64,000 nucleotides of DNA from assembly GCA_002436105.1 (NCBI GenBank), contig DIXU01000017.1, forward strand, positions 26,015-90,014. Reading direction: 5' to 3'. The position numbers were made by a program, and so were the translations under genes. The stretch comes from Candidatus Aminicenantes bacterium UBA6072 (lineage in GTDB: Bacteria; Acidobacteriota; Aminicenantia; UBA2199). Below are positions 3,498 through 56,075 of the stretch, in pieces (within the stretch, counting starts at the first letter, position 1; each line of letters starts with the position of its first letter). The notes below the pieces were generated by a model that saw nothing but the letters and a program-made list of their open reading frames with translations, searched no databases and had not been told where the DNA came from.

Positions 3498-3569
3498 AGT
3501 TGCAGAGCGCAAAGCGCTTCTTTGCTATGCGCTATGCTCTCTGCGCTATGCAATTGCTAGAGGCAACCC

Positions 3570-6020: not shown

Positions 6021-8423
6021 ATGAGCAGAAATTATTTGAAATTGGCCCTGCGCGTTATCCGCCGCCAGAAGGGGTATTCGCTCATCAACACGATCGGCCT
6101 GGCCATCGGCATGGCCTGCTGCCTGCTGATCATGCTCTGGGTGCAAAACGAGCTTTCATATGATCGCTTCCATGATAAAGGAGACCGCATCTTCCGGGTG
6201 TTCCAGGAGCTCACCCTGAATGACCGGGTACGAACCGCCCCTGAAACTGGCGCCATGATGGGCCCGGCCGCAATCCAGTCGATTCCCGAGGCCGAAGCGG
6301 CCGCTCGCATCCTTCCCATGGCGGACACCACCGTCAAGTACGGCGAGAAGGAATTTCGCGAGAATCATATCCTGTTCACCGACTCGGAGATATTTTCCGT
6401 TTTCAGTTTTCCCCTGGTCTCCGGACATTCTGCTACGGCGTTGACGGCGCCCTATACGGTTGTGCTTTCCGAAAAGACGGCCCGCAAGTACTTCGGCGCC
6501 GAAAACCCGCTCGGTAAAGTGCTTCAATTTGGGGGCGGCCACGCGTATTCCGTCACCGGCGTCATGAAGGATGTGCCCCGCAATTCTCATTTGACGTTTG
6601 ACATTCTCTGCTCGTTCGCCAGCTATGCGAAAGAGAACGAATACAATGCGTCCTATTGGGGGAACATGGAGACGTATACCTATTTCTTGCTGGCTCCGGG
6701 GGCTGACAGCCGTTCTTTTCTGGCCAAGCTGAACCGCCTGAGCGACGAGAATATCGGCAATAAATTGAAGAAGATCAACGGAGGCCTGAAGGTATTCCTG
6801 CAGCCACTGCGCGACATTCACCTGCATTCGGGTTTTGAATCCGACATGGCCGAGATCAACGACATAAAGACCGTGATCCTGTTCTCCGGAATCGCCCTGT
6901 TCATCCTGCTTATCGCCTGCATCAATTTCATCAATCTCGCGACCGCCCGCTTCGCCAACCGCGCTTTGGAAGTGGGACTGCGCAAGACCATGGGCGCCAG
7001 CCGCAGCTCCCTGGTCCTGCACTTTTTCGTCGAGACGTTCGTTGTCGCCATGCTGGCCGCCGTACTGGCCATCCTGCTGACAGCCCTGGCCCTGCCCGTG
7101 CTGAATTCCATTGCCGGCCAGGAGTTCCCTTACTCCGCCCTCTCGCAGCCCCTCTTTCTCCTGAGCGTCTTCCTCTTCACGGCCATGGTCGGCGTTCTCG
7201 CCGGCAGTTATCCGGCCTTCTTCCTTTCCTCTTTCGCCCCGGTGCAGACCATGAAGGGCAAGCTCAAGGCCGGCGCGGCCAGCGCCACCTTCCGCAGGAT
7301 CCTGGTGGTCGGGCAGTTCACGGTCTCCATCGCCCTGATCATCGGCACCCTCACCGTTTTCAAGCAGCTCCGTTTCATCCAGAACAAAAATCTGGGATTC
7401 ACCAAGGAGCAGGTGATGGTGCTGCCGCTGCCCGATAGAATGGCGGTAACGCGGGAGACGGTGCGGGAGGAATTCGCCGCCGTAAATGGGATCACAAACG
7501 CGGCGATATCATCGGACGTACCGGGCGTTGACATCAACATGAACAATTACATTCCTCAAGGAAAAACCGAAAGCGAAGGGGTGCTGATGCAGACGATGGC
7601 TGTGGATGACCATTTCCTGACCACCTTGGGGATGACAATCGTGAAAGGCCGGAATTTTTCTGGGGACATGAAAACAGATGCCAACGAAGCCCTTCTGATC
7701 AACGAGACCGCCGCGGACCGCTTGGGCTGGCAGGACCCCATCGGGAAAATCGTGACCCGCCCCGCCTTCTCGAATGGAAAACACGTTTCTATTAAAAGGA
7801 AGATCGTGGGGGTGGTGAAGGACTTCCACACCCTTTCCCTGCATCAGAAGATCGAGCCCCTGGTCATGGACAACTCTTCTTGGGGATTGCGCTTTTTATC
7901 ACTGCGTTTTGAAGGCCAACGCCTTCCTGAACTCATCACTGCTGTGAAGGCAAAGTGGCGGCAATTCTTTCCCGCGATAGGTTTCGATCCTTTCTTTCTG
8001 GATGAGGCTTTCGCCCGGAGATACCAAGCCGAGGAACGGCTCAACAAGATCTTCAGCTCTTTTGCCATCCTGGCCATCTTCATTTCCTGCCTGGGATTGT
8101 TCGGCCTGGCCGCTTACATGACGGAGAGGCGGACCAAGGAGGTGGGCATCCGCAAGGTGCTCGGGGCGCCGGTTTCCGGCATCGTGCTTCTGTTGTCGCG
8201 TGAATTCAGCATATGGGTGCTGGCCGCCAACCTCGTCTCCTGGCCACTGGCCTATCATTTCCTCACCCGCTGGCTGGAAGGCTTCGCCTACCATGCCCGC
8301 ATCGGCATCGGCATCTTCCTGGTATCTGGCTTTTCCGTCCTGCTCATCGCCCTGCTGACCGTGAGTTTCCAGGCCATTCGCGCCGCCCGCGCCAACCCGG
8401 TCGACAGCCTGAGGTACGAATGA
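6021..8423 (+). CDS. MacB-like double-FtsX ABC permease (paralog)
   Basis: 800-aa ORF with the same architecture. GGAGG RBS upstream (caaggaggatcccATG). Confidence 0.85.
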   Translation: MSRNYLKLALRVIRRQKGYSLINTIGLAIGMACCLLIMLWVQNELSYDRFHDKGDRIFRVFQELTLNDRVRTAPETGAMMGPAAIQSIPEAEAAARILPMADTTVKYGEKEFRENHILFTDSEIFSVFSFPLVSGHSATALTAPYTVVLSEKTARKYFGAENPLGKVLQFGGGHAYSVTGVMKDVPRNSHLTFDILCSFASYAKENEYNASYWGNMETYTYFLLAPGADSRSFLAKLNRLSDENIGNKLKKINGGLKVFLQPLRDIHLHSGFESDMAEINDIKTVILFSGIALFILLIACINFINLATARFANRALEVGLRKTMGASRSSLVLHFFVETFVVAMLAAVLAILLTALALPVLNSIAGQEFPYSALSQPLFLLSVFLFTAMVGVLAGSYPAFFLSSFAPVQTMKGKLKAGAASATFRRILVVGQFTVSIALIIGTLTVFKQLRFIQNKNLGFTKEQVMVLPLPDRMAVTRETVREEFAAVNGITNAAISSDVPGVDINMNNYIPQGKTESEGVLMQTMAVDDHFLTTLGMTIVKGRNFSGDMKTDANEALLINETAADRLGWQDPIGKIVTRPAFSNGKHVSIKRKIVGVVKDFHTLSLHQKIEPLVMDNSSWGLRFLSLRFEGQRLPELITAVKAKWRQFFPAIGFDPFFLDEAFARRYQAEERLNKIFSSFAILAIFISCLGLFGLAAYMTERRTKEVGIRKVLGAPVSGIVLLLSREFSIWVLAANLVSWPLAYHFLTRWLEGFAYHARIGIGIFLVSGFSVLLIALLTVSFQAIRAARANPVDSLRYE

Positions 8424-8496
8424 TGGAGACCGGAGGCCGGAGACCGCAGACCGGAAGATGAAGGAAATCCAAAAAAGCTTGAGTCGTTAGGAGGCA

Positions 8497-17149: not shown

Positions 17150-17600
17150 CAACATAAAAGTTTAAAGTTTAAAGTAAAAAGTTTAAAGTAAGAAAAATTA
17201 CTTCATGGAAAAAAGGCGCTGAAAGGGCTTTTGTTTTAAAAATTGATATTCAGATCTGCATGCTCGATTGGAGAATACCTTTGCACAAAATTCCATTCTT
17301 CACTATCACTACCACTATCACTACCACTAAGACCTGTTAAGACCCATCAGGGGCATCACCACCTATCAGGCCTCCTGCTAACACTATCACTAACACTAAC
17401 ACTCGACTTTGTATTGCCCTGCTGACACTGACACTGTCACTGACACTTGCCTTGGCTTTCGTTTTGAAAATTGGAATTTGGATGTTGTTTGTTATTTGGT
17501 ATTTGGGATTTGGTATTTTAGTCTTCGTATTGCTTCTTCTCTTGCCGTAAACCGTCAACCGTCTACCTTAAACCGATTTCAATTCAAGACGATTGACGTT
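17150..17600. repeat. intergenic repeat island A: degenerate tandem 6-12-mers
   Basis: Tandem arrays read directly: AAAGTTTA x4 (17155-17195), CACTATCACTAC x2.5 (17301-17330), CTAACA/CTATCA (17378-17403), TGACAC/TGTCAC x4 (17423-17447), ATTTGGN array (17461-17520), AACCGTC-like module (17545-17580). Confidence 0.8.
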
Positions 17601-18387: not shown

Positions 18388-18877
18388 GATCTCACCTGAA
18401 TGAATTATACCATACATTAGGTTCAAGCCAACCGCGGCAGCAGGAATCAAGACGATCCAAAAGTGCCAGAGATAGTGGTAGCGTTAGCGGGAACCAAGGA
18501 AATCGGTTTACGGAGGACGGTTTCCAAAGCAAAGAACAAGCGATTGTTGATGGGTAGAAGAGTAGAAGGGTTGATGGGTCAGCAGCCCTTGATTGGGCCA
18601 TGCCTGAACCCTTCAACTCTTGAACTCTTTAACTCTTCAACTTTTTTGTTTGGGTCAAAGTCCCTGCCCGGGGAAATGTTAGTGACAGTGTCAGCAGGAA
18701 ATGAAAGGAATCAATATGCGGTAGACGGTTGACGGGAAGAGAGGAATTTCACCTTCAACCTTACGCCCTGAACCTTACGCCAAGTTCCGTTCTGCCTCGT
18801 CACGCGTTTCGCGTTACGCGTCACGAAGATTTATTTTTTTTTCCTTCGCGTCACGCGTCACGATTTACCCTGGGGAG
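18388..18877. repeat. repeat island B (core 18525-18712), inverted partner of island D
   Basis: Core is near-identical (about 3 mismatches by eye over ~188 bp) to the reverse complement of 26634-26820. Flanked by GGTTTACGG/GACGGTT modules. CGTCACG heptamer arrays at 18800-18860. Confidence 0.85.
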
Positions 18878-19828
18878 TCAGAACAGCCGCTTCTGCTCCG
18901 GGGCTTCCCTGGCCGCCGCGGCGCGGATGACCGCAACGACCGGCCCGGCGCCGGCGGCGGGGTCCCAGGACACCGCGCCCCTGCGGATCAGCTCCCGGTT
19001 CCCCTCGGCAGGGCAGGAGAAGCAGGCGGGCGCGGCCGCGAACACGGGGATGCCGAGCTGGAAAGCAGCCCGGGCGGCGTTGAAGGAGCCGCTCATGCGC
19101 CGGTCGGCGTCGCGCTCGGGACCGGAGATGACCACGACCAGCGCGTCGGAGAGGGCGGCGACGATCCGGTTGCGCGCCATGGCCTGGAAGGCGGCCCACC
19201 TGGCGTCAGGGGCGAACTGGGAGACCACCAGGATGTTGTCCACCGCCAGATGCTCCTGCAGCTCGGGCCGGGTCTGGAAACGGTGCAGCCCCTCGGCCAA
19301 GACCAGGGTGGTCGTGCCGCCGGCGCGCAGGGCGGCCGCGTGGGCGGCGCTGTCGATCCCGGCGGCATAGCCCGAGACGACATTGGCTCCCCGCGCGGCC
19401 AGTCCGGCGGCCAGGGCAGCGGCGGCCGCCAGGGCATCCTCCCCGGCCTGGCGCTTGCCAACGATCGCCGCACCCGGTTGCTCCAGCAGGGCGACGTTGC
19501 CCCTCACGTACAGCAGCGCCGGCAGGGCGAGCTTTTCCTCCAGGATCCTGAGCCGTCGCGGGAAGTCGGGATGGAGAGGGTGCAGCAGGGTCACCTCCCG
19601 CCCGGGGAAACTCTCTCCGCCATCGCGCTCATGGAGAGTAAGATCGGGAATGGCGAAGCCCGCCCGGCTCACTCCCAGCGCTTCGCCCAGTTTTTCGGGG
19701 TGCTCGACAAGCCAGGAGGCCGCCAGACCCCTGCCTTCCAGGAAGGCGGCGATGCGCCACAGCGCCCTGGGCCCCAGCCCCCTGACGGCGGCCAAAGCGC
19801 GCCAGGCCCGGCCTTCGGGGGTGTTCAT
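18878..19828 (-). CDS. dprA: DNA processing protein DprA (Smf)
   Basis: N-terminal SAM-like region and Rossmann-fold core (GxAxGIDxxAH, VVISG-like motifs). Start MNTPEGRAW overlaps the upstream stop as ATGA. The ORF-track 529-aa version carries an Arg/Pro-rich artefactual extension. Confidence 0.8.
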   Translation of the reverse strand: MNTPEGRAWRALAAVRGLGPRALWRIAAFLEGRGLAASWLVEHPEKLGEALGVSRAGFAIPDLTLHERDGGESFPGREVTLLHPLHPDFPRRLRILEEKLALPALLYVRGNVALLEQPGAAIVGKRQAGEDALAAAAALAAGLAARGANVVSGYAAGIDSAAHAAALRAGGTTTLVLAEGLHRFQTRPELQEHLAVDNILVVSQFAPDARWAAFQAMARNRIVAALSDALVVVISGPERDADRRMSGSFNAARAAFQLGIPVFAAAPACFSCPAEGNRELIRRGAVSWDPAAGAGPVVAVIRAAAAREAPEQKRLF

Positions 19829-20421
19829 GACCTCGACCGCGTGTACGTCGCGGTGAGCACCGACACGCTGCCGGCCCGGCCGGCGAAGAGCAGGACGGCG
19901 GTCGCCGCCTTCAGAGTCTCGCCCGAGCGAAAGAGGTCGTCGAAAAGCAGCAAGTGCATGCCGGCGTAGCGTTGGTCGGCGACGGCAAAGGCTCCGTCCA
20001 GCTCCGAGCGGCGCTCGCGCGTATCCTCCATGTTCTTCAGCGCCGGCGTGGCCTTGGCCTTCAGCAGGTAGTCGTCGGGGGCGGGCAGGGAGAGCCCGGC
20101 GCCGATGGCCACCGCCAGCTCCGCGACGGGCTGGAATGCGCGATCCATGTTCGACGGCGGCACCGGCAGCACGGCGCGGATGCCGGCGAACTCGAGCCGG
20201 TTGCGGACGAAATCCGCCGCGGCGCGGGCGATGGGCTCGAGCTGGCCCCGATCCAGGCGGTATTTCAGGCGGTAGAGCGCCTCGCCGATCTCGCTGCGCT
20301 CGGTCGCGAAACGGTCGTACTTCGAGCGTTCGCCGTCCCCCGAGCGGCTGCTGAGCGTGTGCCGGTCGAGGGCCCAGCCATGGGCCCAGTTGCCGTAGAT
20401 CGGTTTGGGATTCAGTTCCAT
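19825..20421 (-). CDS. ComF/GntX-like phosphoribosyltransferase-domain protein (no zinc finger)
   Basis: PRTase motif LLLFDDLFRSGETLKAA near the C-terminus. Start MELNPKPIYG. Translationally coupled to dprA. The N-terminal Cys4 finger of canonical ComFC is absent. Confidence 0.6.
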   Translation of the reverse strand: MELNPKPIYGNWAHGWALDRHTLSSRSGDGERSKYDRFATERSEIGEALYRLKYRLDRGQLEPIARAAADFVRNRLEFAGIRAVLPVPPSNMDRAFQPVAELAVAIGAGLSLPAPDDYLLKAKATPALKNMEDTRERRSELDGAFAVADQRYAGMHLLLFDDLFRSGETLKAATAVLLFAGRAGSVSVLTATYTRSRS

Positions 20422-20589
20422 CTTGTCGCCAGGGATACATGATAATGGAATCGCTGCCGGGTGACAAGCGAGGGGGAACGGAAAGGAGAAGGCGATCGGT
20501 GCGAGGCGCAGGGCGACCGGTTCAGGGCCAGGGGGAAACATGGTCATGGCGGAAGGATGGAGGCGATTGGAAAAGACAAGCCAGGCCGG

Positions 20590-20898
20590 CTAATCTTCCA
20601 GCTGCACCTTGATTCCGCCGGTGATCGTTGTTACCAGGTTGAACAGGGCCGCGCCGATGAGGCCGGTGACAAAGCCGATCACGGCGTACATGACGGGCAG
20701 GATGATCAGCGCCGCCATGCCCAGGCCGGCACCGAAGGCGGGCAGGGCTTCGCTTCCTTCGATGAAGCGGCCGGCGAAAGCCTGCCAGAGGAAGCCGAAA
20801 AAGGCGATCATGACGCCGACCAGCAGGCCGACCATGGCCAGCAGCACGGTCTGGAACTTGGCGAACGACAGCACGTCGATCTTCTTCAATGTCTTCAT
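20590..20898 (-). CDS. small integral membrane protein (hypothetical, 3 TM)
   Basis: 102 aa. Three hydrophobic helices with Gly-zipper-like segments. No family recognised. Confidence 0.5.
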   Translation of the reverse strand: MKTLKKIDVLSFAKFQTVLLAMVGLLVGVMIAFFGFLWQAFAGRFIEGSEALPAFGAGLGMAALIILPVMYAVIGFVTGLIGAALFNLVTTITGGIKVQLED

Positions 20899-21026
20899 TT
20901 CAATTCCTCCTCGATGAAGTGAAACAAAAGGACCGCGGCGGCGTACGGCGAAGCGGATATCGCGAACGACTTCGGGGAAAATGACTGCGGCCGTTCGCCG
21001 GGTTCATTTCGCTGCGGCATGGAACC

Positions 21027-21743
21027 TCATTTTACAAAGCGATTGAAGGCCCGTTCTGCCCCGATGGTCGTCGCCGGGCCGTGGCCGGGAAGAACCCGGG
21101 TCAGCGGGGGCAAAGGCAGGAGGCGCTTGCGGATACTGTCGATTTCCAGCTGCAGGCTCGCCCGGCGCTGCCGGGGCGTACCGCCGTGGCCCTTGCCGAT
21201 GCCACCGGCAAAAAGGGTATCGCCGGAAAATAGTATGTTTCCCATCCTGAGGCAGACGCTCCCCGGTGAATGCCCGGGCGTGCGGATGATCTCGACCTCC
21301 AGCCCGCCCAGCCGCAGGCGGCCATCCTCGGGATAATCGCTGAAAACGATCGCCGGGCCGGTGGTTTTCGCCGCCAGGGAGTGGTCGGCGCGGTGCAGGT
21401 AAAAAATTGTCTCCAGCCTGGCGGCGATGTAGGCGTTGCCGCCGACATGGTCGAAATGGCCGTGGGTGTTCAGGACGGCCAGCACGCGGAGCCCCTGCTT
21501 CTGGACGAAGTCCAGCAGCCCCGGGGCGGGGGCGCCGGGATCGATGACCAGCGCCTGCCTTGTGCCGGGGTCCCAGGCCAGGTAGCAGTTCATCTCCCAG
21601 CCGCCGTCCAGGGGCAGGGCAAAGGCCTTGACTTGCGGGCCGGCCGCCGCTTCCTCGAAGAACCCGAGAGCGGGGTCGGTTTGGGCCGCGAGGCCCGCTT
21701 CCAGGAAGCCCAGGAGCGGAACGATCCACAATAACCGCATCAT
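21027..21743 (-). CDS. MBL-fold metallo-hydrolase (hydroxyacylglutathione hydrolase-like), secreted
   Basis: HGHFDHVGG metal-binding motif and TPGHSPGS. Signal peptide from MMRLLWIVPLLGFLEA. The ORF-track N-terminal extension is rejected. Confidence 0.75.
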   Translation of the reverse strand: MMRLLWIVPLLGFLEAGLAAQTDPALGFFEEAAAGPQVKAFALPLDGGWEMNCYLAWDPGTRQALVIDPGAPAPGLLDFVQKQGLRVLAVLNTHGHFDHVGGNAYIAARLETIFYLHRADHSLAAKTTGPAIVFSDYPEDGRLRLGGLEVEIIRTPGHSPGSVCLRMGNILFSGDTLFAGGIGKGHGGTPRQRRASLQLEIDSIRKRLLPLPPLTRVLPGHGPATTIGAERAFNRFVK

Positions 21744-22258
21744 GGCAGGTATGTACCACGGCGGCGCCCGGTTGTCAAAAAATGGAATCGACCGGGCACT
21801 TGAAAAACGACCCATGAATCGTGAGGCGATATTTTGGCCGAGCTGTTGTCCGTTTCTGTGCACTTCCGCTTTTGACCTTTCACCATGCTGGCTGCCGTCC
21901 ACCGCCGGCCATGCGCTGCAAGCCAGGCTCGAATCTTCCCGGTCCGTTGCATTTTCATCCCCGTCCTCCTACAATACAGCCATGGACGAAAACAACAAGA
22001 ACTTCTTCTGGGGCGTGCTCCTCGGCGCCGTGGCGGCGGCTTTGGCCGGAGCCGTGGCATTGTCCAGATCGTTCCGCGGGTCCAAGGACGGCGCGAAGAC
22101 ATTCGCGCCTGCCGCAGGGAGAAAAGGCGGGCCGGCTCCGCGCCGTTCCAGGTCGTCAACGGGCCCGGCGAAAAAAAACGTCCGCCGCAAGGCCTAGCCG
22201 GAAAGCACCGCAACGGCCGGGCGGCGGGATAATTTCATTCAAAAAACTCTGACCGTCA

Positions 22259-25300: not shown

Positions 25301-25595
25301 CAATTACTCCGACGCCCACCTGTTCCCGGTGGAATACAAGATCCGCGGCATCGGCAAGACGCTGGGAATGCCCGTGCCCGGCACGGGGACGTTCGTCTGG
25401 TGGGAACAGCAGATCGACCCGACCCTGCGCTTCGGCATCCCCCAGGGCGGCTGGCGCACCCCGGAGGGTATACTCTGCGAGAACAACCAGCTCGAGCCCG
25501 ATATCCCGGTCAGGAACGATCCCGACGTCCTGGCGCTCGGGCGCGACCAACAGATCGAGGCGGCAGTAGCAGAGCTGTTGAAAGAAAAGAAGTGA
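22332..25595 (+). CDS. tricorn-protease homolog (TolB-like beta-propellers, PDZ, S41 C-terminal peptidase)
   Basis: ~1090 aa. Signal peptide. Repeated PD40/WD-like blades (SPDG…, IAF/YxS). C-terminal S41-like catalytic region. GGAGG RBS before ATG at 22332. Confidence 0.65.
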   Translation: MRPSINKALRSFCAAFLFAWILGALPLPAQDQPLWLRYPAISPDGSSILFCYQGDIYKVPAAGGQAVPLTIGESHEFAPVWSHDGRTIAFASDRHGSFDVFVVSAAGGEARRLTFHSRNDIPSGFSADDRSVLFNQVRKDLASDAQFPTPALPELYSVPVQGGEIALVLTHAAIAAKVSPDGNRIIYHDQKGYESDWRKHHTSAVTRDIWVHDLKANKYTRLTSFNGEDRNPVFAANGDDFYYLSEQSGSFNIRRSSLSKPAESLALTHFTKNPVRFLSRADTGRLCFGYDGEIYTLDAGAMPHRVDVRIAQDGRQVLAKPVPVAGGITQMRLSPNGKEIAYVFRGEIFVGSVEGGVGKRITHTPGQERSVSFSPDGRSLVYAAERDNNWNVYTTSIARKEEPYFYAATLLKEEPLVATAAEEFQPEFSPDGKEVAYIEDRVVLRVINLASRQTRTILPAEHNYSYADGDQDYAWSPDGKWFLVQFGYVRLFTAQVGLVASDGKGQVVNLTRSGFDSIGARWGMDGAMMFYGSTRDGAANVSGSPVTYDIYGMFFTREAHDRFLLSKPDFALLKEQEDKVAKDKEKAGDKKAATARDEPKKDIVIELAGLDQRKVRFTVRSADIAGAALSRDGEKLFYLARFEKGYDLWQAELRAKETKLLTKLNAERAAMELSADGKALFVLAEGRVSKIDPESGKAEPVAIGNEMFLDAGAEKAYMFDHMWRQIRQKFLVADLYGADWDFYHATYRKFLPFINNNYDYAEMVSEMLGELNASHTGCYYSPPRAPEADATASLGFFRDYVHASPGIRIAEILPGGPLDKAALRIRAGHVIEKIDGAALDGSFDHDRLLNRKAGQLTLLSVFDPAAKQRWEETVKPIALNEEAPLVYRRWVRARRAEVERLSGGRIGYVHVRGMNDASMRTVIEEVLGLSIDKEALIVDTRFNGGGNLHDQLADFLAGRKVFDIVPRGQLVGYEPYDKWIKPSIVVMGEGNYSDAHLFPVEYKIRGIGKTLGMPVPGTGTFVWWEQQIDPTLRFGIPQGGWRTPEGILCENNQLEPDIPVRNDPDVLALGRDQQIEAAVAELLKEKK

Positions 25596-25750
25596 AGACC
25601 TAAGTGACGAGTGACAAGTGACGAGGAACAGCCTGGTTCGAGTTCTTGCGGCTTTCTTCCCTTGTCCCTTGTTGCTTGGCACTTGTCACCAGGATTAGTC
25701 CCGATCAGGCGCTGGGTTGCCAATCGTTCTGCCGCCGGCTAGAATGAGCC
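25596..25750. repeat. repeat island C: AAGTGAC heptamer array with partial inverted partner
   Basis: taAGTGACgAGTGACaAGTGACgag at 25601-25625. Inverted cttGTCACc / ttgtcccttgttgc downstream. Confidence 0.7.
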
Positions 25751-26551
25751 ATGGAAAGAAAGCCCCTGGACGGCGGCATGCTATTCTTTGATGCCCGGGA
25801 CAATGAGGCGGCCGAATGGATGGGCGCCGCCGCCGAGGAGTCGCAGCGCCTGGCCCGCGAACTCTGGGGACTGGCGCCGCGGGGCGAGTTCCAGGTACAC
25901 GCCATGACCTCGTGGGCCGGATTTCTCTTCGCCGCCGCTCCCGGGGCTTGGCGCCCTTGGCTGCTCCTCACCCTGCCCCTGTGGGTCTCCCGGGTCACAA
26001 AGACCTGGAGAATGGCCGGAGGCTGGACGCAGCGCTTCGGCAGCAGGGTGGCGGTGGGTGTCAAGCCGCCGCGCCTGCTTCTGGCCGCCGACCGCTCCCT
26101 GGGCAAGCGGCTTTTCCTGTCCGAGCCCGACGTGCAGGGCAAGGTGCGGCAGATCACCTGGCACGAGACGGTCCATGCCTGCTCGCTCCATCACAAGCTC
26201 CCTGCCTGGCTGAATGAGGGGCTGGCCATGTTTGCCGTCGACCGGCTCGCAGGCATGCCGACCGTCCGTCCCGAGACCCTGTCCTGGATGACAACGGCCA
26301 ATGCCTCCGGCGGGCGCCGCTATCCCGCCCACTCCCATGACCGGGCCGGGACCTTTCTGCGTCTCTATGCCCAGGGATATTGGCGGGTACGTTTCCTGGA
26401 AGAGACGCGCCCGGGGCTGCTAAAGGAGCTCCTGTCGGCGAAATACGATTCAGACGAGTGGCTGCGGTCATTCGCCAAGGCCTGCGGGCTTGGTGATGGC
26501 GCCGGCTGGGCGGAAGTGGACCTGTCTGTGGCCAGGCACTTCGAGCAATAG
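25751..26551 (+). CDS. peptidase-MA-like zinc metalloprotease (HExxH…NEGLA)
   Basis: HETVH followed by LNEGLAMF, matching the gluzincin-like Peptidase_MA_2 motif pair. Confidence 0.5.
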   Translation: MERKPLDGGMLFFDARDNEAAEWMGAAAEESQRLARELWGLAPRGEFQVHAMTSWAGFLFAAAPGAWRPWLLLTLPLWVSRVTKTWRMAGGWTQRFGSRVAVGVKPPRLLLAADRSLGKRLFLSEPDVQGKVRQITWHETVHACSLHHKLPAWLNEGLAMFAVDRLAGMPTVRPETLSWMTTANASGGRRYPAHSHDRAGTFLRLYAQGYWRVRFLEETRPGLLKELLSAKYDSDEWLRSFAKACGLGDGAGWAEVDLSVARHFEQ

Positions 26552-26892
26552 CACCCGGTGTGCGTCGCGCGGCTTAAGGCATTAGGTGGAATTCCTTTCT
26601 TCCCTTAAACCGTAAGCCTTCTACCTTAAACCGATTCCTTTCATTTCCTACTGACACTGTCACTAACATTTCCCCGGGCAGGGACTTTGACCCAAACAAA
26701 AAAGTTGAAGAGTTAAAGAGTTCAAGAGTTGAAGGGTTCAGGCAGGGCCCAATCAAGGGCTGCTAACCCATCAACCCTTCTACTCTTCTACCCATCAACA
26801 ATCGCTTGTTCTTTGCTTTGAAAACCGTCGACCGTCAACCGATTTCTAGTACAGCCAATGACGCTGATACCGTTACTGGCACTTACTGCACG
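26552..26892. repeat. repeat island D (core 26634-26820), inverted partner of island B
   Basis: The reverse complement matches island B core almost base-for-base. Flanked on both sides by direct copies of the CTTAAACCG…AACCGATT(C/T)C module. Confidence 0.85.
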
Positions 26893-33795: not shown

Positions 33796-33824
33796 TGAAT
33801 GGTATTTTATAGCACAAAACGCCA
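33796..33824 (-). promoter_or_regulatory. sigma70-like promoter of bamA (TTGTAA-17-TGcTATAAA, read on minus strand)
   Basis: -35/-10 hexamers with 17-nt spacer and TG-extended -10, ~35 nt upstream of the bamA ATG. Shares TTGTGCTATAAAA with the divergent fmdB promoter. Confidence 0.4.
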
Positions 33825-33891
33825 TAAATTACAATTCTCATATAAAGGATAAGACGTACGGGATGCATGAGAAAGTTTCAGCGTTTTTTTA

Positions 33892-33920
33892 TTGACAGCC
33901 GGAATCGATTGTGCTATAAA
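33892..33920 (+). promoter_or_regulatory. sigma70-like promoter of the fmdB-like gene (TTGACA-17-TGcTATAAA)
   Basis: Consensus -35 TTGACA (33892-33897), 17-nt spacer, extended -10 TGCTATAAA (ending 33920), ~30 nt before ATG 33951 with GGAGGAAG RBS. Confidence 0.5.
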
Positions 33921-33950
33921 AAAAATATCCATCACGCGGAGGAAGTGGCC

Positions 33951-34196
33951 ATGCCGATCTACGAATACAAATGCTCGAAATGCGGCAGAGTTTTCGAGTG
34001 TTTGCAGTCCGTTTCGGCCTCGCCGCGCCGCAAGTGCATCCACTGCCGGGGCCAGGCCGAAAAGATCGTTTCCCAGAGCTCGTTCCAGTTCAAGGGCTCG
34101 GGCTGGTACATCACCGATTACAAGAAGAAGGGCGCCCAGAGCGCCGCCCCGGCCAAGCCCGCGGAAAAAACCGATAAAAATGCCAAAGCCAGTTAG
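33951..34196 (+). CDS. FmdB-family zinc-ribbon protein
   Basis: MPIYEYKCSKCG…CIHCRG: two CxxC pairs on the typical FmdB N-terminus. The ORF-track start at 33867 lies upstream of the promoter, so 33951 is preferred. Confidence 0.7.
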   Translation: MPIYEYKCSKCGRVFECLQSVSASPRRKCIHCRGQAEKIVSQSSFQFKGSGWYITDYKKKGAQSAAPAKPAEKTDKNAKAS

Positions 34197-34656
34197 CCTT
34201 TCCATCTCTCCCCCCTTAATATAACCATAACCCCCACCCTACAAAAACACCCCCCCCGCTACATGGGGGGGGCCCGCCTTTTGTCATTGCCAGCAGATGG
34301 AATCGGTTTACGGTAGACGGTTTACGGTAGACGGGAAGAGAAGAGGCAATAGGAAGACTAAAATCCCAAATCACAAATTCCAAATCCCAAATAAATTCCA
34401 AACTCCAAATTCCAATTTCCAAAACGAAAACCAAGGCAAGTGTCAGTGACGGTGTCAGTAGGAGCCTTGGAATACGTTCTTGCTCTTTCGTTTCAACGTT
34501 TTAACGCTGCAACACTTCAACGATTTATGTTCCATTGACCCTTCAATTCATCACCGAGTTCGGGATCTTCGTTTGGGTCATTTGGTAATTGAAATTTGGT
34601 GCTTGTTTGGGATTTGGAATTTGGTGCTTGGAATTTAATTCTTCACATGTCACGCG
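34197..34656. repeat. repeat island E: composite with internal long inverted repeat
   Basis: Left part (34298-34462) is the reverse complement of island A 17421-17585 at roughly 80-85% by eye. Right part carries ATTTGGN arrays that are the inverse of the left AAATNCCA arrays. CGTCACG heptamers at 34650-34680. Confidence 0.8.
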
Positions 34657-35160
34657 TCACGCGTTACGCGTCACGACAGATCCTCCCTTTGCTGCCGCTG
34701 ACCGCAAACAGCCGGGCTCGTCTCCTGTCTTTTCCAGGATAATGGTCACCGGCCCGTCATTGACCGAGCGCACCTGCATCATGGCGCCGAATTCCCCTGC
34801 CGCGACCGGGACGACGTCCCGCAGCAGCGAGTTGAAGCGCTCATAGAGCTCCCGGGCGCGGCCGGGCTCCTCGGCATGGGTGAAGTCTGGACGCCTCCCC
34901 TTCCTGTTGCGCGCTGCCAGGGTGAACTGCGAGACCGAGAGTACGCCGCCTCGCACCTGCCGGACATCGAGGTTCATCCTCCCCGCTTCGTCGGCGAAGA
35001 CGCGCAGGTGCAGGACCTTGTCGGCCATGAAGGCGATCTCCCCCTCGCCGTCGCCCTTTTCAATGCCCACCAGCAGGAGCAATCCCCGGCCGATGCGGGC
35101 GATCTCGCGCCCCACGACGTCGACGCCGGCCTCCGCGACCCGCTGGATCACTACGCGCAT
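34657..35160 (-). CDS. dtd: D-aminoacyl-tRNA deacylase Dtd
   Basis: MRVVIQRV… start, SQFTLAA motif and MQVxxVNDGPVT. The C-terminus runs ~20 aa into the repeat island. Confidence 0.8.
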   Translation of the reverse strand: MRVVIQRVAEAGVDVVGREIARIGRGLLLLVGIEKGDGEGEIAFMADKVLHLRVFADEAGRMNLDVRQVRGGVLSVSQFTLAARNRKGRRPDFTHAEEPGRARELYERFNSLLRDVVPVAAGEFGAMMQVRSVNDGPVTIILEKTGDEPGCLRSAAAKGGSVVTRNA

Positions 35161-35164
35161 GGCT

Positions 35165-36004
35165 TCACCAGGGGCTGCCAAGCGGAGGCAGTTCCCTCTT
35201 CTCGCCGCCCGGGGCGGGAAGCGGATCGACTTTTCGCAGCAGCAGGGGGGAATCAAGGTCGATCCGCAGTCCCTCGCCTTCCCCTTCTTCCCGGGGCAGA
35301 AGGGCGGGGTTGCGCACCCAGCCGGAGCTTCGGCAGACCAGCCAGGCCCGGGAGTGGGCAAGATCCGGCTCCAGGTGCAGGCGGACGATCTCCAGCCGGC
35401 TCTCCTCCCACGAGACATGATTGATGAACCCCAGCAATGCCGGCAGCGGCGCCATGGCGACGACGCAAGCGGAACGGTTCGCGGGCAGGCCAGGCAGCGA
35501 CGGCTGACCGGTGAGCAGGCCACGCCAGTAATAACGTTTCGGGTCATGGGCCCGTGAAAAACCCTCCTGGATGGCGACGTACTGACTGCCGATCCAGCCG
35601 CCGAGGGGATCTCCCCGTCCCGGCCCGGCGCTTCCCAGCTCGGGCGCATGGATCTTGTTGCCGGACAGGAACCGGGCATGGGGGATGGCATCCAGCAGGA
35701 CCCGTTGCTGCAGGCTGGTCAGGGCCACCGCCCGCCAGCCGGCGTCATCGTCCAGCAGCGGCAGCGCCTGCCGGGTCCGGGATTCCATTTGCGCCAGGCG
35801 CTCCTCTTCTACCGCGTCGGGAAATTCGAGGTCAGCGGCCATGGCGCCGTGGTCCCTGATCTTGCGTTCCCAGTCGCCGCGCTCGCGGCGCAGGCGGCCC
35901 AGGTCCCTGACGGTCGGGTACCAATCCAGGACGACGAAGGCAGCTGCGACGGAAAGCGCCGCCAGGGCGCGAAACAGGGAGCCAGCCAGCTTCCCCCAGC
36001 TCAT
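35165..36004 (-). CDS. hypothetical membrane-anchored protein (N-terminal TM plus periplasmic domain; PilO/GspM-like topology)
   Basis: Single N-terminal TM (LFRALAALSVAAAFVVL) followed by a coiled-coil segment. ATGA overlap with the upstream gene. No family recognised. Confidence 0.4.
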   Translation of the reverse strand: MSWGKLAGSLFRALAALSVAAAFVVLDWYPTVRDLGRLRRERGDWERKIRDHGAMAADLEFPDAVEEERLAQMESRTRQALPLLDDDAGWRAVALTSLQQRVLLDAIPHARFLSGNKIHAPELGSAGPGRGDPLGGWIGSQYVAIQEGFSRAHDPKRYYWRGLLTGQPSLPGLPANRSACVVAMAPLPALLGFINHVSWEESRLEIVRLHLEPDLAHSRAWLVCRSSGWVRNPALLPREEGEGEGLRIDLDSPLLLRKVDPLPAPGGEKRELPPLGSPW

Positions 36005-36510
36005 GGCTGCAACTCCACCCGGCCGCGGACAACGAAGAGACGCGATTCGCTCCCGGGGGCAGGCGCCGGCGATGACGTGACATCGAAAGCCGCGGTCGCA
36101 TCCGCCAGCCGCCCCAGGAAAGCGTCGAGCTCGCGCCGGGCGACGGCATCCGCGCCGACCGCCAGCTCGAAGTTCATGTCGTGCAGCCCGGGATCGATGC
36201 GGACGGAGACCAGCCGCAGGGGTGCCGCGATGCCGTCCAGGCGGCGGACGAGATCGGCGGCGGCGTAGGAGGCGTCCATGGGATAGCCGAGGAAATAGCG
36301 GAGCTGGTAGAAGCGGGCGCGCCGGGCCTTGGTCGCGGCGATCGGTTGCTCGCGCACCAGCGCGAGGTAGCTCCGCTTCATCTCCGCGGCCTCCCTGGCG
36401 CGGCTGAACCGGACCGCGTGCAGCAGCAGGGAGATGACGGCCAGGAGCAGAAACAGGAGCAGCGGCCGGCGCCGAGGCCGGCGCAGCGGGCGATCGTCTG
36501 GCTCGTTCAT
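36001..36510 (-). CDS. hypothetical membrane-anchored protein (PilN/GspL-like topology)
   Basis: Arg-rich N-terminus, one TM (LLLFLLLAVISLLL), periplasmic ~110 aa. Coupled to the downstream gene. Confidence 0.4.
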   Translation of the reverse strand: MNEPDDRPLRRPRRRPLLLFLLLAVISLLLHAVRFSRAREAAEMKRSYLALVREQPIAATKARRARFYQLRYFLGYPMDASYAAADLVRRLDGIAAPLRLVSVRIDPGLHDMNFELAVGADAVARRELDAFLGRLADATAAFDVTSSPAPAPGSESRLFVVRGRVELQP

Positions 36511-36519
36511 GGCCGGGGC

Positions 36520-36924
36520 TCAGCCGCCGATGAACTTCAGGAAGACCCGCCGCTGGCGCGGGCCGTCGAACTCGCAGAAAAAGATCCCCTGCCAGGAGCC
36601 GAGGATCGGTTCGCCGTTGTTCACCAGCAGGGTCTCGGAGGCGCCCACCAGGCTGGACATGATGTGCGCCGGCGAGTTGCCCTCGCCGTGCCGGAAATAA
36701 TCCTGCTGGGGCGCCAGGCGCCTGAGGAACTCGCCGATGTCATGGGGCACGGCCGGGTCGGCGTTTTCGTTGATGGTCACGGCGGCGGTGGTATGCGGCG
36801 TGTAGACCAGCAGGATGCCCGAGCTGTACTTGCCGCTGCGCAGCATCTCGCGCACCGGGACGGTGATGTCGATGAATTCGATCTTTTTCGTGCTCTTCAG
36901 CTCGATGGCATGGTAGGCGCTCAT
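36520..36924 (-). CDS. yjbQ: YjbQ/UPF0047 family (secondary thiamine-phosphate synthase-like)
   Basis: ITVPVREML…LVYTPHTTAAVTINENADPAV…SPAHIMSSL…GSWQGIFFCEFDG: motifs conserved along the whole length. Confidence 0.75.
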   Translation of the reverse strand: MSAYHAIELKSTKKIEFIDITVPVREMLRSGKYSSGILLVYTPHTTAAVTINENADPAVPHDIGEFLRRLAPQQDYFRHGEGNSPAHIMSSLVGASETLLVNNGEPILGSWQGIFFCEFDGPRQRRVFLKFIGG

Positions 36925-37520
36925 GCTTCCTCCGCGTGCTCCCTTTCAGCAAAAACTTCCGCCTGGAACGTCTCGATGCCCACTCCCCTTTTCCACTCGT
37001 CGGCGGCCAGCCCCGCCTTGCGGCAACCGCAGGAAATGTACTGCTCCAGGTCCCAGCGCTGCTCGAGCGGCACCTGGGGCAGCAGCAGGCCGCGATTCAG
37101 CCCCTTGCTGACGATGATGCCGTCTATGCCCACCCGCACGTCCCCCGGGCCGGGCACGGGCCGCGGAACGGTCAGGACCGAGATCTCGATATCGAGCCCG
37201 GGCAGTTCATCGCCGGAGACGGCGGGAAAGCGCGGGTCCTCGAAAGCGGCGGCCAGGGCCATCTCCCGCACGGCCTCCCAGAGCGGCTTGACGGGCAGCG
37301 GGTAGCCGATGCAGCCGCGCAGCTCGCCGTCGCGGTGCAGGGTGACGAAGACGCCGCGTCTCTCCAGGAATACCGGCGCCGGGGCAGGCGGGCCGTCAGG
37401 CCGCCGTCCCCTTGGAGGGACGGGTTCGCCGCCGCGCTCTCCCGAGGCCAGGTACCTGCGGATGGTCTCCCGGGCAAGCGCCAGGAGCGCTTTCCGTTCC
37501 GCTCCGCTCAATTCCGCCAT
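36921..37520 (-). CDS. AMMECR1-domain protein
   Basis: RGCIGY motif and AMMECR1-like length (199 aa). ATGA overlap with yjbQ. Confidence 0.8.
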   Translation of the reverse strand: MAELSGAERKALLALARETIRRYLASGERGGEPVPPRGRRPDGPPAPAPVFLERRGVFVTLHRDGELRGCIGYPLPVKPLWEAVREMALAAAFEDPRFPAVSGDELPGLDIEISVLTVPRPVPGPGDVRVGIDGIIVSKGLNRGLLLPQVPLEQRWDLEQYISCGCRKAGLAADEWKRGVGIETFQAEVFAEREHAEEA

Positions 37521-37888
37521 TGCGCCCCGGTTTCCTCCGCAAGCGGCGCCAGGAGCGCCTTCTTCACGGCCGGATCGAATTCACAGGTGAAAGCCTGGAT
37601 TTCCCTGAGGCGCACGGCGAGGATCAGGCAGCCGATGAACCATTCCAGGGCTCGCGGCGGCTTGCGGCAGAAGAACGCCCCCTGCAGCCGCTCGCCGTAT
37701 TGCCGGCAGGCGGCGGCATGGGCGGCGTCGTTGCCGGCGCTGCCGATATCCAGGGGCAGGAGCCGCTCGACCAGGATCGCGAGCCCGATCCGCGTCCCCA
37801 GCAGGAAGCCCGCCCCGCGGTAGCCGGCGGCGCGCAGGACCGCGATGTCCTCCAGCGCCGCCGGCAGCAGTTGCACGTTCATAAGCAA
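37508..37888 (-). CDS. hypothetical protein (126 aa)
   Basis: 13-nt overlap with the AMMECR1 start. Moderately natural composition. No motif recognised. Confidence 0.3.
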   Translation of the reverse strand: MLMNVQLLPAALEDIAVLRAAGYRGAGFLLGTRIGLAILVERLLPLDIGSAGNDAAHAAACRQYGERLQGAFFCRKPPRALEWFIGCLILAVRLREIQAFTCEFDPAVKKALLAPLAEETGAQWRN

Positions 37889-37895
37889 AAACTAG

Positions 37896-38095
37896 CACAA
37901 TTGCTGAAACAAAACAACTGAAAAAGACGTCAGACGTTAGATGTTAGACGTTAGATAAAAGAAGAAAAAATCTTAATGGCCTTTGCGAAATGACACGAAT
38001 TCTTTCTTTTCTAGCTAATCTCTGCCATTAGTTAGCAAATGATTTTTTCTTGCTGACGTCTAACGTCTGACGTCTAACGTCTATTTCTTTTTCAG
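37896..38095. repeat. repeat island F: ~30-bp inverted arms of GACGTTA/TGACGTC heptamers around a ~110-bp AT-rich spacer
   Basis: GACGTCAGACGTTAGATGTTAGACGTTAGAT … GCTGACGTCTAACGTCTGACGTCTAACGTCTA, read directly. Lies between the rarA 3' end and the next gene start. Confidence 0.8.
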
Positions 38096-39397: not shown

Positions 39398-40351
39398 TTA
39401 GGGGTGGCGGTTCAGGATCATGGCCGCCAGCAGCGGCACCAGGATCTCGTGCGGGCCGACGAAATAGAAGCCCTTGCCGCCGCGGGCCGTCGGCCGCCGG
39501 CAGACGTTCTCCTGGGGCCGGTAGAGGCGCTGGAAATCGAATACGGCGGTGTGGAATTGCTGCAGCGCGATCCCCTGGGCGGCGCAATAGGAGACGGCCT
39601 TGAGGAACACCTCGGGCAGGATGACCGCCGAGCCGATGTTGAGGAAGACGCCGCCGTCGCCCAGCTCGGAAACGATCGAGGCCAGCAGCTGGAAATCGCG
39701 CTCGGCCAGGGCGCCGCTGACCTCGCCGGAGAACATCGGGTGGTAATGGATGAAATCGGTGCCGATGGCCGGGTGGATGGTCACCGGGATGTTCAGCCGG
39801 TAGGCGTTGAAGAGCACGCTGTCCTCCAGGTGGGGGAACTGGGCCTGGATCAGGTAGTGCCCCACCGCCTCGCCGGCGCCCATGCCCTGCGACAGCCCGT
39901 CCTTCAGGGCCAGGTTCAGGAAGAGCCCCGTTTCTTCGGTATTGCCGTAGGTGCCCTGCAGCAGGTTGCCGTCGACGTCCTCGGAGGTGTGGCCGGCCAG
40001 GGCGAGCTCGAAGTCGTGGATCATCATGGCGCCGTTGCTGGCGATGGCCGACACCCAGCCGCGCTGCATCAGGTCGACGAGCAGCGGCCCCAGGCCCAGC
40101 TTGACCACGTGGGCGCCCATGGCCCAGATGATCGGCCGGTTCTTCTTCCTGGCCTGTCCCAGCAGGTCCACCAGCTCGCGCAGGTCGCGGGCGGCCAGGT
40201 AGGGGGGCAGGGAGTCCAGGAACTGGCGGAAGTCGGCGCCGGGCAGGCAGGGCCTGGGAAAATCCTTCAAATGGACCAGGGAATGCCGCTCCTTGATGGA
40301 GACGGTCTTCATCTTCCTGCGCTCCAGCGGCCGGTATTTCGGGTAGGGCAT
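39398..40351 (-). CDS. deoxyhypusine-synthase-like (DHS fold) protein, function unknown
   Basis: By-eye alignment of LMQRGWVSAIASNGAMMIHDFELAL to the DHS segment [25 protein letters not shown]. Catalytic-Lys context not confirmed. ATGA-coupled to pgsA. Confidence 0.35.
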   Translation of the reverse strand: MPYPKYRPLERRKMKTVSIKERHSLVHLKDFPRPCLPGADFRQFLDSLPPYLAARDLRELVDLLGQARKKNRPIIWAMGAHVVKLGLGPLLVDLMQRGWVSAIASNGAMMIHDFELALAGHTSEDVDGNLLQGTYGNTEETGLFLNLALKDGLSQGMGAGEAVGHYLIQAQFPHLEDSVLFNAYRLNIPVTIHPAIGTDFIHYHPMFSGEVSGALAERDFQLLASIVSELGDGGVFLNIGSAVILPEVFLKAVSYCAAQGIALQQFHTAVFDFQRLYRPQENVCRRPTARGGKGFYFVGPHEILVPLLAAMILNRHP

Positions 40352-55158: not shown

Positions 55159-55250
55159 TCGGATCTAAGTGACAAGTGACTAGTGACAAGTGACAAGTGA
55201 CAAGGAACATCAATCGAACGAGCGATTACCGTTTTTCGCCTCGTTACTCG
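55159..55250. repeat. repeat island G: AAGTGAC heptamer arrays forming a hairpin between convergent genes
   Basis: taAGTGACaAGTGACtAGTGACaAGTGACaAGTGACaag … cgttactcgttacttGTCACtcGTCACtg. Inverted arms with ~40-nt spacer, between the kinase stop and the mutM stop. Confidence 0.8.
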
Positions 55251-56075
55251 TTACTTGTCACTCGTCACTGATCTCATCTTCTGACAGTCAGGGCAATAAT
55301 GGCTGGAACGGCCATTGATGCGGATCTTATCGATGGCTGTGCCGCAGGCCGGGCAGGGTTCGCCGGCGCGGCCGTAGACGTTGAGATGCTCCCGGTTTTC
55401 GCCGCTCTCATCGGCTACGGTGCGGTAGTTGCGGAGGGTGGTTCCCCGACGGCGGATGGCCTGGCGCAGGACCTGGGGAATGACCGACGCCAATCGCCGT
55501 TGCTGCCCATCGCTCAGGGAGGCGGCGGGAGTCAAAGGATGCGTGCCGGCCAGGAACAATGCCTCGTCAGCGTAGATGTTGCCGATGCCGGCCAGGATGG
55601 TCTGATCGAGCAATGCGCTCTTGACGGGCCTCTTTGTTTTCAGATGCTTCAGAACCCGGCGCACGGTCTCCGCACGCAGCGGCTCGGGGCCCAGCCCAGG
55701 GCAGGACTCGCCGCGGCAGGGCCACAGGTGCAGTCGGCCGAACTTGCGGGCATCGACGAAATAAAGCTTCGTGCCGTCGGTGAAGGTGAATTGCAGGCGC
55801 AAATGCCTGCGGTCGGCCGCGCCGAGCTCCATCACCAGCTTGCCGGTCATGCGCAGGTGGACGGTGAAAAAAGTGCCGTCCGCGCCCTCGACGCCGATGT
55901 ACTTGCCGCGCCGGGCCACGGCAGCCACGGCCATGCCCCTGACGCGGTGGCGGAATTCCTTTGGCACGCCTTCGACCGAGCGCGGCCAGAACAGGCGCAG
56001 GGCGGAGATGGTTTTCCCTTCGATCTGCGGGCGCAGCTGGCGGACGATGGTTTCCACTTCGGGCAGCTCGGGCAT
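55251..56075 (-). CDS. mutM: formamidopyrimidine-DNA glycosylase
   Basis: MPELPEVETI N-terminus, H2TH region, C-terminal CxxC…CxxC zinc finger. Confidence 0.85.
   Translation of the reverse strand: MPELPEVETIVRQLRPQIEGKTISALRLFWPRSVEGVPKEFRHRVRGMAVAAVARRGKYIGVEGADGTFFTVHLRMTGKLVMELGAADRRHLRLQFTFTDGTKLYFVDARKFGRLHLWPCRGESCPGLGPEPLRAETVRRVLKHLKTKRPVKSALLDQTILAGIGNIYADEALFLAGTHPLTPAASLSDGQQRRLASVIPQVLRQAIRRRGTTLRNYRTVADESGENREHLNVYGRAGEPCPACGTAIDKIRINGRSSHYCPDCQKMRSVTSDK

Follow-up and report, generated by a model that had tools for sequence, protein, structure and literature searches.

A mosaic heptamer-repeat hairpin beside dtd in Candidatus Aminicenantes: a probable member of a dispersed, lineage-specific repeat family

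Introduction

Ever since the first cyanobacterial reports, heptamer repeats have been found to be over-represented in bacterial intergenic DNA, and they are still called uncharacterised (PMC4692102, PMC4679880). Intergenic repeats of this kind are known from heterocystous cyanobacteria, where they are termed STRR, from Beggiatoaceae, from Microcystis and from some Bacteroidetes (PMC4679880), and a report of heptamers in Calothrix is on record as cited in PMC4692102. Here, we analyse a repeat island, called island E, that lies between the convergent genes dtd and a zinc-ribbon gene in a stretch of 64,000 nucleotides from Candidatus Aminicenantes bacterium UBA6072 (contig DIXU01000017.1 of assembly GCA_002436105.1, positions 26,015 to 90,014). 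This whole stretch is called the window, and all coordinates without a locus name refer to it.

Two further kinds of repeat are relevant for the comparison. In Xanthomonas, GGGAATC heptamers form inverted pairs of which the position and the type (single or inverted pair) are kept between species while the length varies (Rehm et al. 2015, PMC4692102). Mosaic palindromic elements, on the other hand, are represented by the BIMEs of enterobacteria, which are built of REP units, and by BOX of Streptococcus pneumoniae, with the structure boxA-(boxB)n-boxC (PMC3184786, PMC2817692, PMC3049150).

We will argue that island E is probably a resident copy of a lineage-specific, high-copy, non-coding family of hairpin repeats in a clade of Candidatus Aminicenantes, comparable to STRR, BIME and BOX, and that it is located in the 3′ untranslated region (3′UTR) of dtd. 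The analysis covered ca 340 kb of clade sequence, and the array statistics 338 kb. Over long stretches, the window is 88-95% identical to the Candidatus Aminicenantes metagenome-assembled genomes (MAGs) UBA2190 and UBA2199, and hence represents a third member of their clade. Among the loci of relatives discussed below, L115 is from UBA2199, L016 is from UBA2190, and L118 and L120 are metagenome contigs.

Results

The gap between the two genes consists of two unlike parts, a single-copy segment at 34197-34296 and island E at 34297-34676. Its left neighbour is the zinc-ribbon gene (33951-34196, + strand; FmdB-type, Zn_ribbon_8, Pfam PF09723 with E = 2.5e-13, and a reading of the open reading frame, ORF). 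To the right lies dtd, encoding a D-aminoacyl-tRNA deacylase in an ORF of 167 amino acids (34657-35160, - strand; Pfam PF02580, Tyr_Deacylase, E = 2.7e-52, residues 2-143), which is the last gene of a six-gene operon as called. A first-pass annotation of this DNA had described a nested palindrome of ca 460 bp that fills the whole convergent gap. The ORF ends at 34196 and 34657 and the convergent position were given correctly there, and the palindrome is real, but it spans only ca 290 bp (34353-34644). The left outermost module, (CGGTNNA)n, lacks complementarity to the right one, (GTCACGC)n, the right array reaches 34675 and thus passes 34656, where the element had been taken to end, and 34197-34296 is single-copy DNA with a hairpin of its own, C8-GCTACAT-G8.

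The sequence of the island recurs elsewhere, both in the window and in related genomes. Positions 34301-34459 are an inverted copy of 17427-17578, with 85% identity over 159 bp, and the right arm has 91-93% matches to the arms of five sampled loci (L006, L040, L087, L101 and L102). The window contains seven low-GC islands including island E, together ca 2 kb or 3% of its length, and all of them are made of short-period arrays. The motif of the left terminal module, AATCGGTTKAMGGNNGAMGG, has 6 matches in the window against 0.02 expected, and AGTGACRGTGTCAG has 5 against 0.03 expected. When 596 Gb of genomes were scanned with the former motif, many loci were found in the MAGs UBA2190 and UBA2199 and few in other Aminicenantes MAGs; in other taxa there was mostly one match per genome, where ca 140 chance matches are expected by calculation. 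The viral contigs scanned with the end motif gave five single matches with no family arms, which are attributed to chance, and the family was not found there.

From 41 sites of this terminal motif, a canonical architecture could be derived, and the sampled loci contain 75 arms of the CCAAAT type and 20 palindromic pairs. The modules are short tandem arrays of 6-8-nt units, mostly heptamers, arranged in mirror order. The canonical element is a near-palindrome of 270-300 bp that reads AATCGG-(CGGTNNA)n, linker, (CCAAATN)n, loop, (NATTTGG)n, linker, (TNNACCG)n-CCGATT; in detail, one half is AATCGG-(CGGTNNA)n, GAAGAGAAGAGGCAATAGGAAGACTTAAA, (CCAAATN)n-CCAAAACGAAAG, and it is followed by the loop and by the inverse ending in CCGATT. 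Island E is a variant of this scheme. It has an additional (TGTCAG)n/(CGTTTCAA)n pair in the loop, a pair also present in the loops of L073 (inverted) and L012, and its right terminus is replaced by a (GTCACGC)n array. This alternative family end, TTTAATTCTTCACATGTCACGCGTCACGCGTTACGCGTCACGA, is also present in L040, L056, L072, L087, L097 and L115.

Seven is the modal period of the arrays, accounting for 168 of 510, with another 43 of period 14. The heptamer units include CCAAATT, CGGTTTA, GTCACGC, AAGTGAC and AGACGTT, among others. Where two arrays of the same heptamer form a pair, the inverted arrangement prevails over the direct one by 37 to 9 in the Aminicenantes loci; in the window, the inverted pairs are 34361/34606, 37925/38056 and 55167/55240. 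All period-7 arrays of at least 3.3 copies in the window are intergenic, the exception being 39479-39501 (GCCGCCG x3.3), which is inside the ORF 39398-40351. The small hairpins at 25603-25690 and 55167-55269 have (AAGTGAC)n arms in common. Islands B and D share an inverted repeat with copies at 18499-18712 and 26633-26846, 8 kb apart and 96.7% identical over 214 bp. The similarity of these copies exceeds that of most orthologous DNA between sister species (88-95%), and they appear to represent a recent copying event within the genome; they are also a possible substrate for inversion.

In the internal organization of island E (Tandem Repeats Finder, TRF; all modules given on the + strand), the left terminal module T1 at 34301-34336 consists of AATCGG and a TTTACGG/TAGACGG heptamer array (period 14, 2.2 copies, 100% match), with GGTTTACGGTAGAC occurring twice at 34306-34333 and GGGAAGAGAAGAGG at 34334-34347. 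The purine-rich linker GAAGAGAAGAGGCAATAGGAAGACTAAA at 34337-34360 stands beside T1 in most of the copies examined, is kept among them, and is included in the 159-bp match mentioned above. The left arm, 34361-34431, is an array of CCAAAT-type heptamers (period 7, 9.4 copies at 34361-34423) ending in CCAAAACGAAAA. It is separated from the right arm by a centre insert at 34432-34567, absent from the UBA2199 ortholog, in which a module of hexamers, CAAGGCAAG-(TGTCAG)n, and one of octamers, (CGTTTCAA)x4, are followed by a spacer; GTGTCAGTGACGGTGTCAG is located at 34440-34458 and the TTCAACG/CGTTTCAA units at 34489-34527. The right arm, 34568-34648, comprises CTTCGTTTGGG, an ATTTGG-type heptamer array (34581-34636, with TRF rows at 34580-34636) and TTTAATTCTTCACAT, and forms the inverted repeat with the left one. 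The right terminal module T2, (GTCACGC)x3.9 at 34649-34675, has a 92.9% match to 18799-18826, and the extended dtd ORF discussed below has its final 6 codons and its stop within this array. All motifs that the first-pass annotation had listed for the left half, the centre and the right half were thus recovered by the tandem-repeat and inverted-repeat analysis. Two other identities were considered for the island and rejected: its repeats do not alternate with unique spacers, as in a CRISPR, and its units are not G-rich, as in a G-quadruplex repeat.

The longest inverted repeat has arms of 63 nt (34353-34415 and 34582-34644) that are 76% complementary and have 166 nt between them, corresponding to an AT-rich stem of ca 60 bp per arm around an interior of about 150-166 nt. 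The segment 34197-34680 folds better than all of 100 shuffled sequences in each case, with RNA energies of -146.5 kcal/mol for the + strand (z = -4.3) and -180.8 kcal/mol for the - strand (z = -7.5), and a DNA energy of -75.5 kcal/mol for the + strand (z = -4.2). The very long imperfect hairpin that had been proposed for this DNA is confirmed by these calculations, and the orthologous islands fold in a similar way, end to end in the dtd sense, with z = -7.0 for L115 and -8.3 for L118. A T-run was found at neither base of the island E hairpin, so the island does not have the form of an intrinsic terminator. In the Rfam scan, the whole window gave no match at gathering thresholds and the island gave no meaningful match at E<=1; two weak matches at that level concerned the C8/G8 hairpin, were far under the gathering scores, and are most likely due to chance.

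Compensatory co-variation between paired arms was examined for the 20 palindromic copies, and none was detected. The mean score for an arm with its own partner is 31.2, compared to 36.2 with the arms of other copies, and after sorting of the arms into X and Y types the values are 30.1 and 33.0, respectively (permutation p = 0.99). Judged from these sequence comparisons, the pairing of the arms stems from a shared vocabulary of repeats and not from base-by-base upkeep.

The single-copy segment begins with a C-rich, conserved, non-repeat spacer in the 3′ region of the zinc-ribbon gene (34197-34248, + strand), which is 100% identical to UBA2199 and ca 93% identical to L118. It is followed by the terminator-like C8/G8 hairpin (34249-34273, - strand), with the arms CCCCCCCC-GCTACAT-GGGGGGGG at 34250-34272, an A-run upstream at 34243-34247, a T-run downstream at 34279-34282, and CCCGCCTTTT after the hairpin. 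The match in the terminator scan is best in the dtd sense (tail GTTTTTG), and on the - strand the sequence GCCCCCCCCATGTAGCGGGGGGGGT GTTTTTG fits the intrinsic-terminator consensus, having a short GC-rich stem, a small loop and a U-tract. The hairpin is identical in L115 and in L118, where Dtd is 75% identical, and in L118 it is followed by T8 in the dtd sense. Spacer and terminator taken together (34197-34281) are ca 92% identical between the window and L118, while the identities are 74% for the zinc-ribbon coding sequence, 73% for that of dtd and 63% for the island. Both the spacer and the hairpin are single-copy, and the hairpin was rejected as a part of the repeat family on this ground.

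It is important to point out that the order of elements, i.e. dtd stop, island, C8/G8 hairpin with T8, and convergent zinc-ribbon gene, is the same in L118. With the terminator that is oriented with dtd placed beyond the island, transcription of the latter as part of the dtd 3′UTR is most likely. The true terminator of the gene pair appears, on this comparison, to be the conserved C8/G8 hairpin beside the island and not the island itself. The segment 34197-34281 could be a conserved non-coding element, possibly a small RNA derived from the zinc-ribbon 3′UTR with C-rich motifs, or a shared terminator.

An island is also found at this site in relatives. In UBA2199, the flanks are 89-95% identical to those in the window and the arrays have other numbers of units; the centre measures 60 bp compared to 159 bp in the window, contains a mini-palindrome, and is without the (TGTCAG)n/(CGTTTCAA)n modules. 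In L118, reading in the dtd sense, the dtd stop is followed by a 370-nt island, GCCCCCCCCATGTAGCGGGGGGGGTGTTTTTTTT and the convergent zinc-ribbon gene. The TGA stop lies inside the first heptamer, TTGACGG, and the island has CGGTNNA arrays at both ends and an (AGTGTT)n...(CTAACA)n hairpin as its centre. In L120, with a Dtd that is 67% identical, the island starts at the dtd stop, while L121, with 57% identity, has no island at dtd and different neighbours. Since an island with an exchanged interior is present at the dtd site in distant relatives, the site would have been occupied for long and the interior replaced piece by piece.

Similar differences are seen at two other sites. At the site of island D, UBA2199 is without the 190-bp module and UBA2190 has an arm similar to that of island E in its place. 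At the site of island F, the hairpin between one and the same pair of genes is (AGACGTT)n/(AACGTCT)n in the window (37925-38083) and (GGCGTAA)n/(CCTTGCG)n in UBA2199 (6085-6215 of L115), so that the architecture is alike and the heptamer family different. The differences between orthologous sites therefore take the form, as far as the aligned loci indicate, of internal module swaps bounded by shared arrays, and not of presence or absence of whole elements.

The island also affects the end of the dtd reading frame. The UBA2199 ORF ends in ...GCLR-TAA, and the corresponding codon in the window (34699-34701, - strand) is TCA, encoding Ser, as determined by nucleotide and protein comparison. The frame in the window thus runs 14 codons past the lost stop (SAAAKGGSVVTRNA), to a TGA within the (GTCACGC)n array. 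Only the last 6 of these codons (VVTRNA) and the stop are encoded by the repeat, fewer than the ca 20 codons that had been assigned to it earlier; the comparison of the C-terminus with the ortholog that was proposed at the same time does reveal a differing tail. The Pfam domain of Dtd ends at residue 143 of 167, before the extension. The TCA variant is also present in a 100%-identical contig from Logan, an independent assembly (SRR943315, L001, 3.4 kb) that corresponds to 34653-38082 of the window.

Discussion

The family shares with the STRR-type repeats that 7-nt tandem units of many sequences, belonging to several unit families, are arrayed strongly intergenically with several arrays per gap, and that assemblies are broken at them (PMC4679880); the literature describes the function of heptamer repeats as unresolved. 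It differs in its host, a candidate phylum member with 65% GC and not a cyanobacterium as in the first definition, and in that the arrays are not merely local but form large mirror-symmetric mosaics that are themselves dispersed at 85-97% identity. With the Xanthomonas pairs it has in common two close heptamer arrays in convergent orientation with the potential for a stem-loop or cruciform, and a position and type kept between species at varying length; there, however, a single G-rich, G-quadruplex-prone unit is used, whereas here dozens of units that are not prone to this structure are nested in layers. Like BIME and BOX, the islands are mosaics in which short palindromic or tandem units are combined as modules, with a variable number of internal modules and stable hairpins, they are intergenic, and such elements are often transcribed with the upstream gene, with roles proposed in mRNA stability and termination. 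Unlike them, the family is made of tandem heptamers and not of 20-40-nt REP palindromes, it has no sequence relation to them, and it has no GTAG/CGTC tag. The only palindrome of the size found in REP, BIME or REPIN elements is AAAGTCCCC-N4-GGGGA, which is absent from island E.

On this basis, a role for island E can be outlined. It would form a ca 400-nt 3′UTR of the six-gene operon ending in dtd, folded into a long RNA hairpin. As in the case of REP/BIME, ERIC, Correia and BOX, the transcribed hairpin would most likely act on mRNA decay or processing and hinder convergent read-through. The length of the arrays would change by replication slippage, and modules would pass from one island to another at the arrays they share, through ectopic recombination or gene conversion rather than by classical cut-and-paste transposition. 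We infer that the island is tolerated or mildly useful, not essential, and that it is not the terminator.

Several considerations weigh against this reading. The transcription of the island and its effect on mRNA are deduced from the geometry of the locus, and slippage combined with recombination is likewise deduced from sequence. The persistence of an island at the exact site, at Dtd identities of 67-75%, is less readily explained by neutral junk than by a selected function or a strong hot spot of insertion. Errors of short-read assembly within the repeats could account for some of the apparent differences in modules between MAGs. Finally, heptamer hairpins could be doing the work of terminators at other genes, as the window at large shows no enrichment of canonical terminators and island F, in its window version, has A- and T-runs on its flanks and resembles a true bidirectional terminator.

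The last point leads to the first alternative, namely that the island itself serves the zinc-ribbon gene and dtd as a bidirectional terminator or insulator, as the first-pass annotation had suggested, and that heptamer hairpins in general are this lineage's substitute for canonical terminators. We regard this as unlikely, though with a real chance of being correct. A hairpin between convergent genes is what such a terminator would look like, and the hairpin is strong on both strands, at a site occupied over a long evolutionary distance with the architecture kept and the sequence changed. The seven large islands of the window are in three convergent and four tandem gaps and in no divergent one, and the hairpins of islands A and C are flanked by an upstream stop and a promoter-like site. 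The role is nevertheless doubtful for island E, which has the dtd stop on one side and, downstream in the dtd sense, a separate canonical terminator that is better conserved, and is hence likely dtd 3′UTR. Its stem is AT-rich with a long interior and has no U-tract at either end, unlike that of a bidirectional intrinsic terminator. A T-run follows only 3 of the 26 outer heptamer hairpins, and the family was rejected as a class of canonical terminators for this reason. It is also dispersed over all gap types: in the UBA loci, arrays are present in 12 of 17 convergent, 22 of 37 tandem and 9 of 20 divergent gaps, a sample that is enriched in islands and relies on approximate gene calls. A refined ORF filter was used for these counts, a cruder one having admitted antisense ORFs, and a family copy in the divergent gap of L067 was checked by eye. 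The notion that the family is confined to 3′ ends was thereby rejected. As discussed above, the arms are moreover no more complementary to their own partners than to the arms of other copies. The terminator role fits the adjacent C8/G8 hairpin better.

A wider alternative is that tandem-heptamer hairpins constitute a distinct, selected, self-renewing class of intergenic element across phyla, which we consider decidedly unlikely. They were seen in loci of Aminicenantes, Bacteroidota, Desulfobacterales, Omnitrophota, Anaerolineae and cyanobacteria, and are described for Xanthomonas in the literature. In loci from other phyla, caught by chance in the motif scan, inverted array pairs outnumber direct ones by 13 to 2. 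The mark of such a class could be that position and mirror architecture are kept at orthologous sites while the heptamer sequence is replaced. If the idea were correct, it would imply a dedicated route of making, e.g. the copying of 7-nt slippage products with a hairpin as template or the action of an unknown enzyme, and a selected role in 3′UTRs or as insulators in genomes poor in canonical terminators.

We have also considered that the heptamer arrays are multivalent protein-binding sites with one protomer per 7 nt, the island being a scaffold or a sponge. Candidate binders would be, on DNA, a protein of the nucleoid or cruciform-binding type or, on RNA, one of the cold-shock or S1 type. This would account for the strict preference for a 7-nt period over many unrelated unit sequences and across phyla, and for the long retention at one site, and heptamer-binding partners have been the subject of published speculation for the cyanobacterial and Beggiatoaceae repeats (PMC4679880; bioRxiv 10.1101/2022.06.06.494920). 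The use of dozens of heptamer sequences, however, argues against one sequence-specific binder, and no candidate protein was identified; we consider the explanation improbable.

Even less can be said for a classical MITE (miniature inverted-repeat transposable element), where the island would be a head-to-head pair of copies of a non-autonomous transposon that a transposase mobilises in trans; we judge this very improbable. The canonical copies do resemble MITE, Correia and ERIC elements in having a size within 100-300 bp, a high copy number and a long hairpin if transcribed, and they have terminal inverted repeats, AATCGGTT...AACCGATT, in e.g. L010, L064 and L085, at lengths of 270-300 bp. The similarity of islands B and D, higher than that of sister-species orthologous DNA, also suggests recent copying. 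However, no target-site duplications were seen at the full copies L010, L035, L052, L064 and L085, whose flanks were read by eye, no matching insertion sequence was found in the ca 340 kb, and no transposase lies beside any of the seven window islands. Island E is without the right-hand terminal inverted repeat, its right end being the (GTCACGC)n array, and orthologous sites differ by module swapping and not by the presence or absence of the whole element.

A chimeric join of repeat-bearing reads in the metagenome assembly is hardly credible: the Logan contig does stop exactly where islands E and F have their borders, and assemblers struggle there, but the independent assemblies L115, L118 and L120 show a similarly built island at this site with continuous flanks.

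This clade of Aminicenantes offers an unusually rich natural data set, with modules common to the islands and at least three related genomes with swapped contents at the same sites. It allows one to ask how mirror-paired arrays arise, and whether it is the hairpin or the sequence that persists. The name Aminicenantes was absent from the papers retrieved by searches that included it. In practical terms, short-read assemblies break at the islands, and between sister genomes a rearrangement breakpoint and a difference in gene content are located at them. The islands can also alter protein ends, as in the stop-loss of dtd, and in Aminicenantes MAGs they can lead to wrong annotation of terminators and of small ORFs.

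Additional observations

The genes flanking the islands of the window are ordinary housekeeping genes and encode an MFS transporter, a TPR protein, a tricorn-like protease, a beta-lactamase-fold protein, MgsA, a Ser/Thr kinase and Fpg. Opposite the zinc-ribbon gene, an antisense ORF of 132 amino acids (33807-34205, - strand) is taken as spurious, as it stops after 19 codons in L118; a strong purine-rich stretch precedes its ATG.

Three loci labelled 'uncultured Clostridia bacterium SRP192927_co7_47' (L019, L098 and L103) contain the Aminicenantes family, with AATCGG termini and GTCACGC, CCTTGCG and AGTGTT arrays, and their taxonomic label or binning is doubtful.

In UBA2190, the gene 25751-26551 (no Pfam match) is missing, as seen from L016 2935-3361 compared to 25567-26822 of the window; one 426-bp island with an E-like arm is found where the window has islands C and D around this gene. 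In the same locus (7002-8000), window position 21947 is joined to 18893 in the opposite orientation with a heptamer island at the junction. This breakpoint (18893-21947), of which one end is visible in L016, coincides with the edge of island B.

The mini-palindrome AAAGTCCCC-N4-GGGGA, of 18-20 nt, is an optional module inserted at one fixed point of the arm (GGTC^...^TTGG), with 15 copies, among them those in L040, L042, L052, L056, L072, L073, L087, L101 and L115 and at 18657 and 26688 of the window. It is reminiscent of the very small repeats that are reported to be nested in the heptamer arrays of cyanobacteria.

Outside the clade, Desulfobacterales bacterium HSG2 has a hairpin of (CGGTTGA)x16, 12 nt and (ACCGTCA)x19 at L051 1420-1682, and a Bacteroidetes MAG has mirror heptamer pairs at L043 4720-4845, 6692-6803 and 7531-7658. 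In the window itself, two small arrays, 3524-3551 (GCTATGC x4) and 8425-8455 (GGAGACC x4.4), are located in same-strand gaps of 72-73 bp, just before the next start codon.

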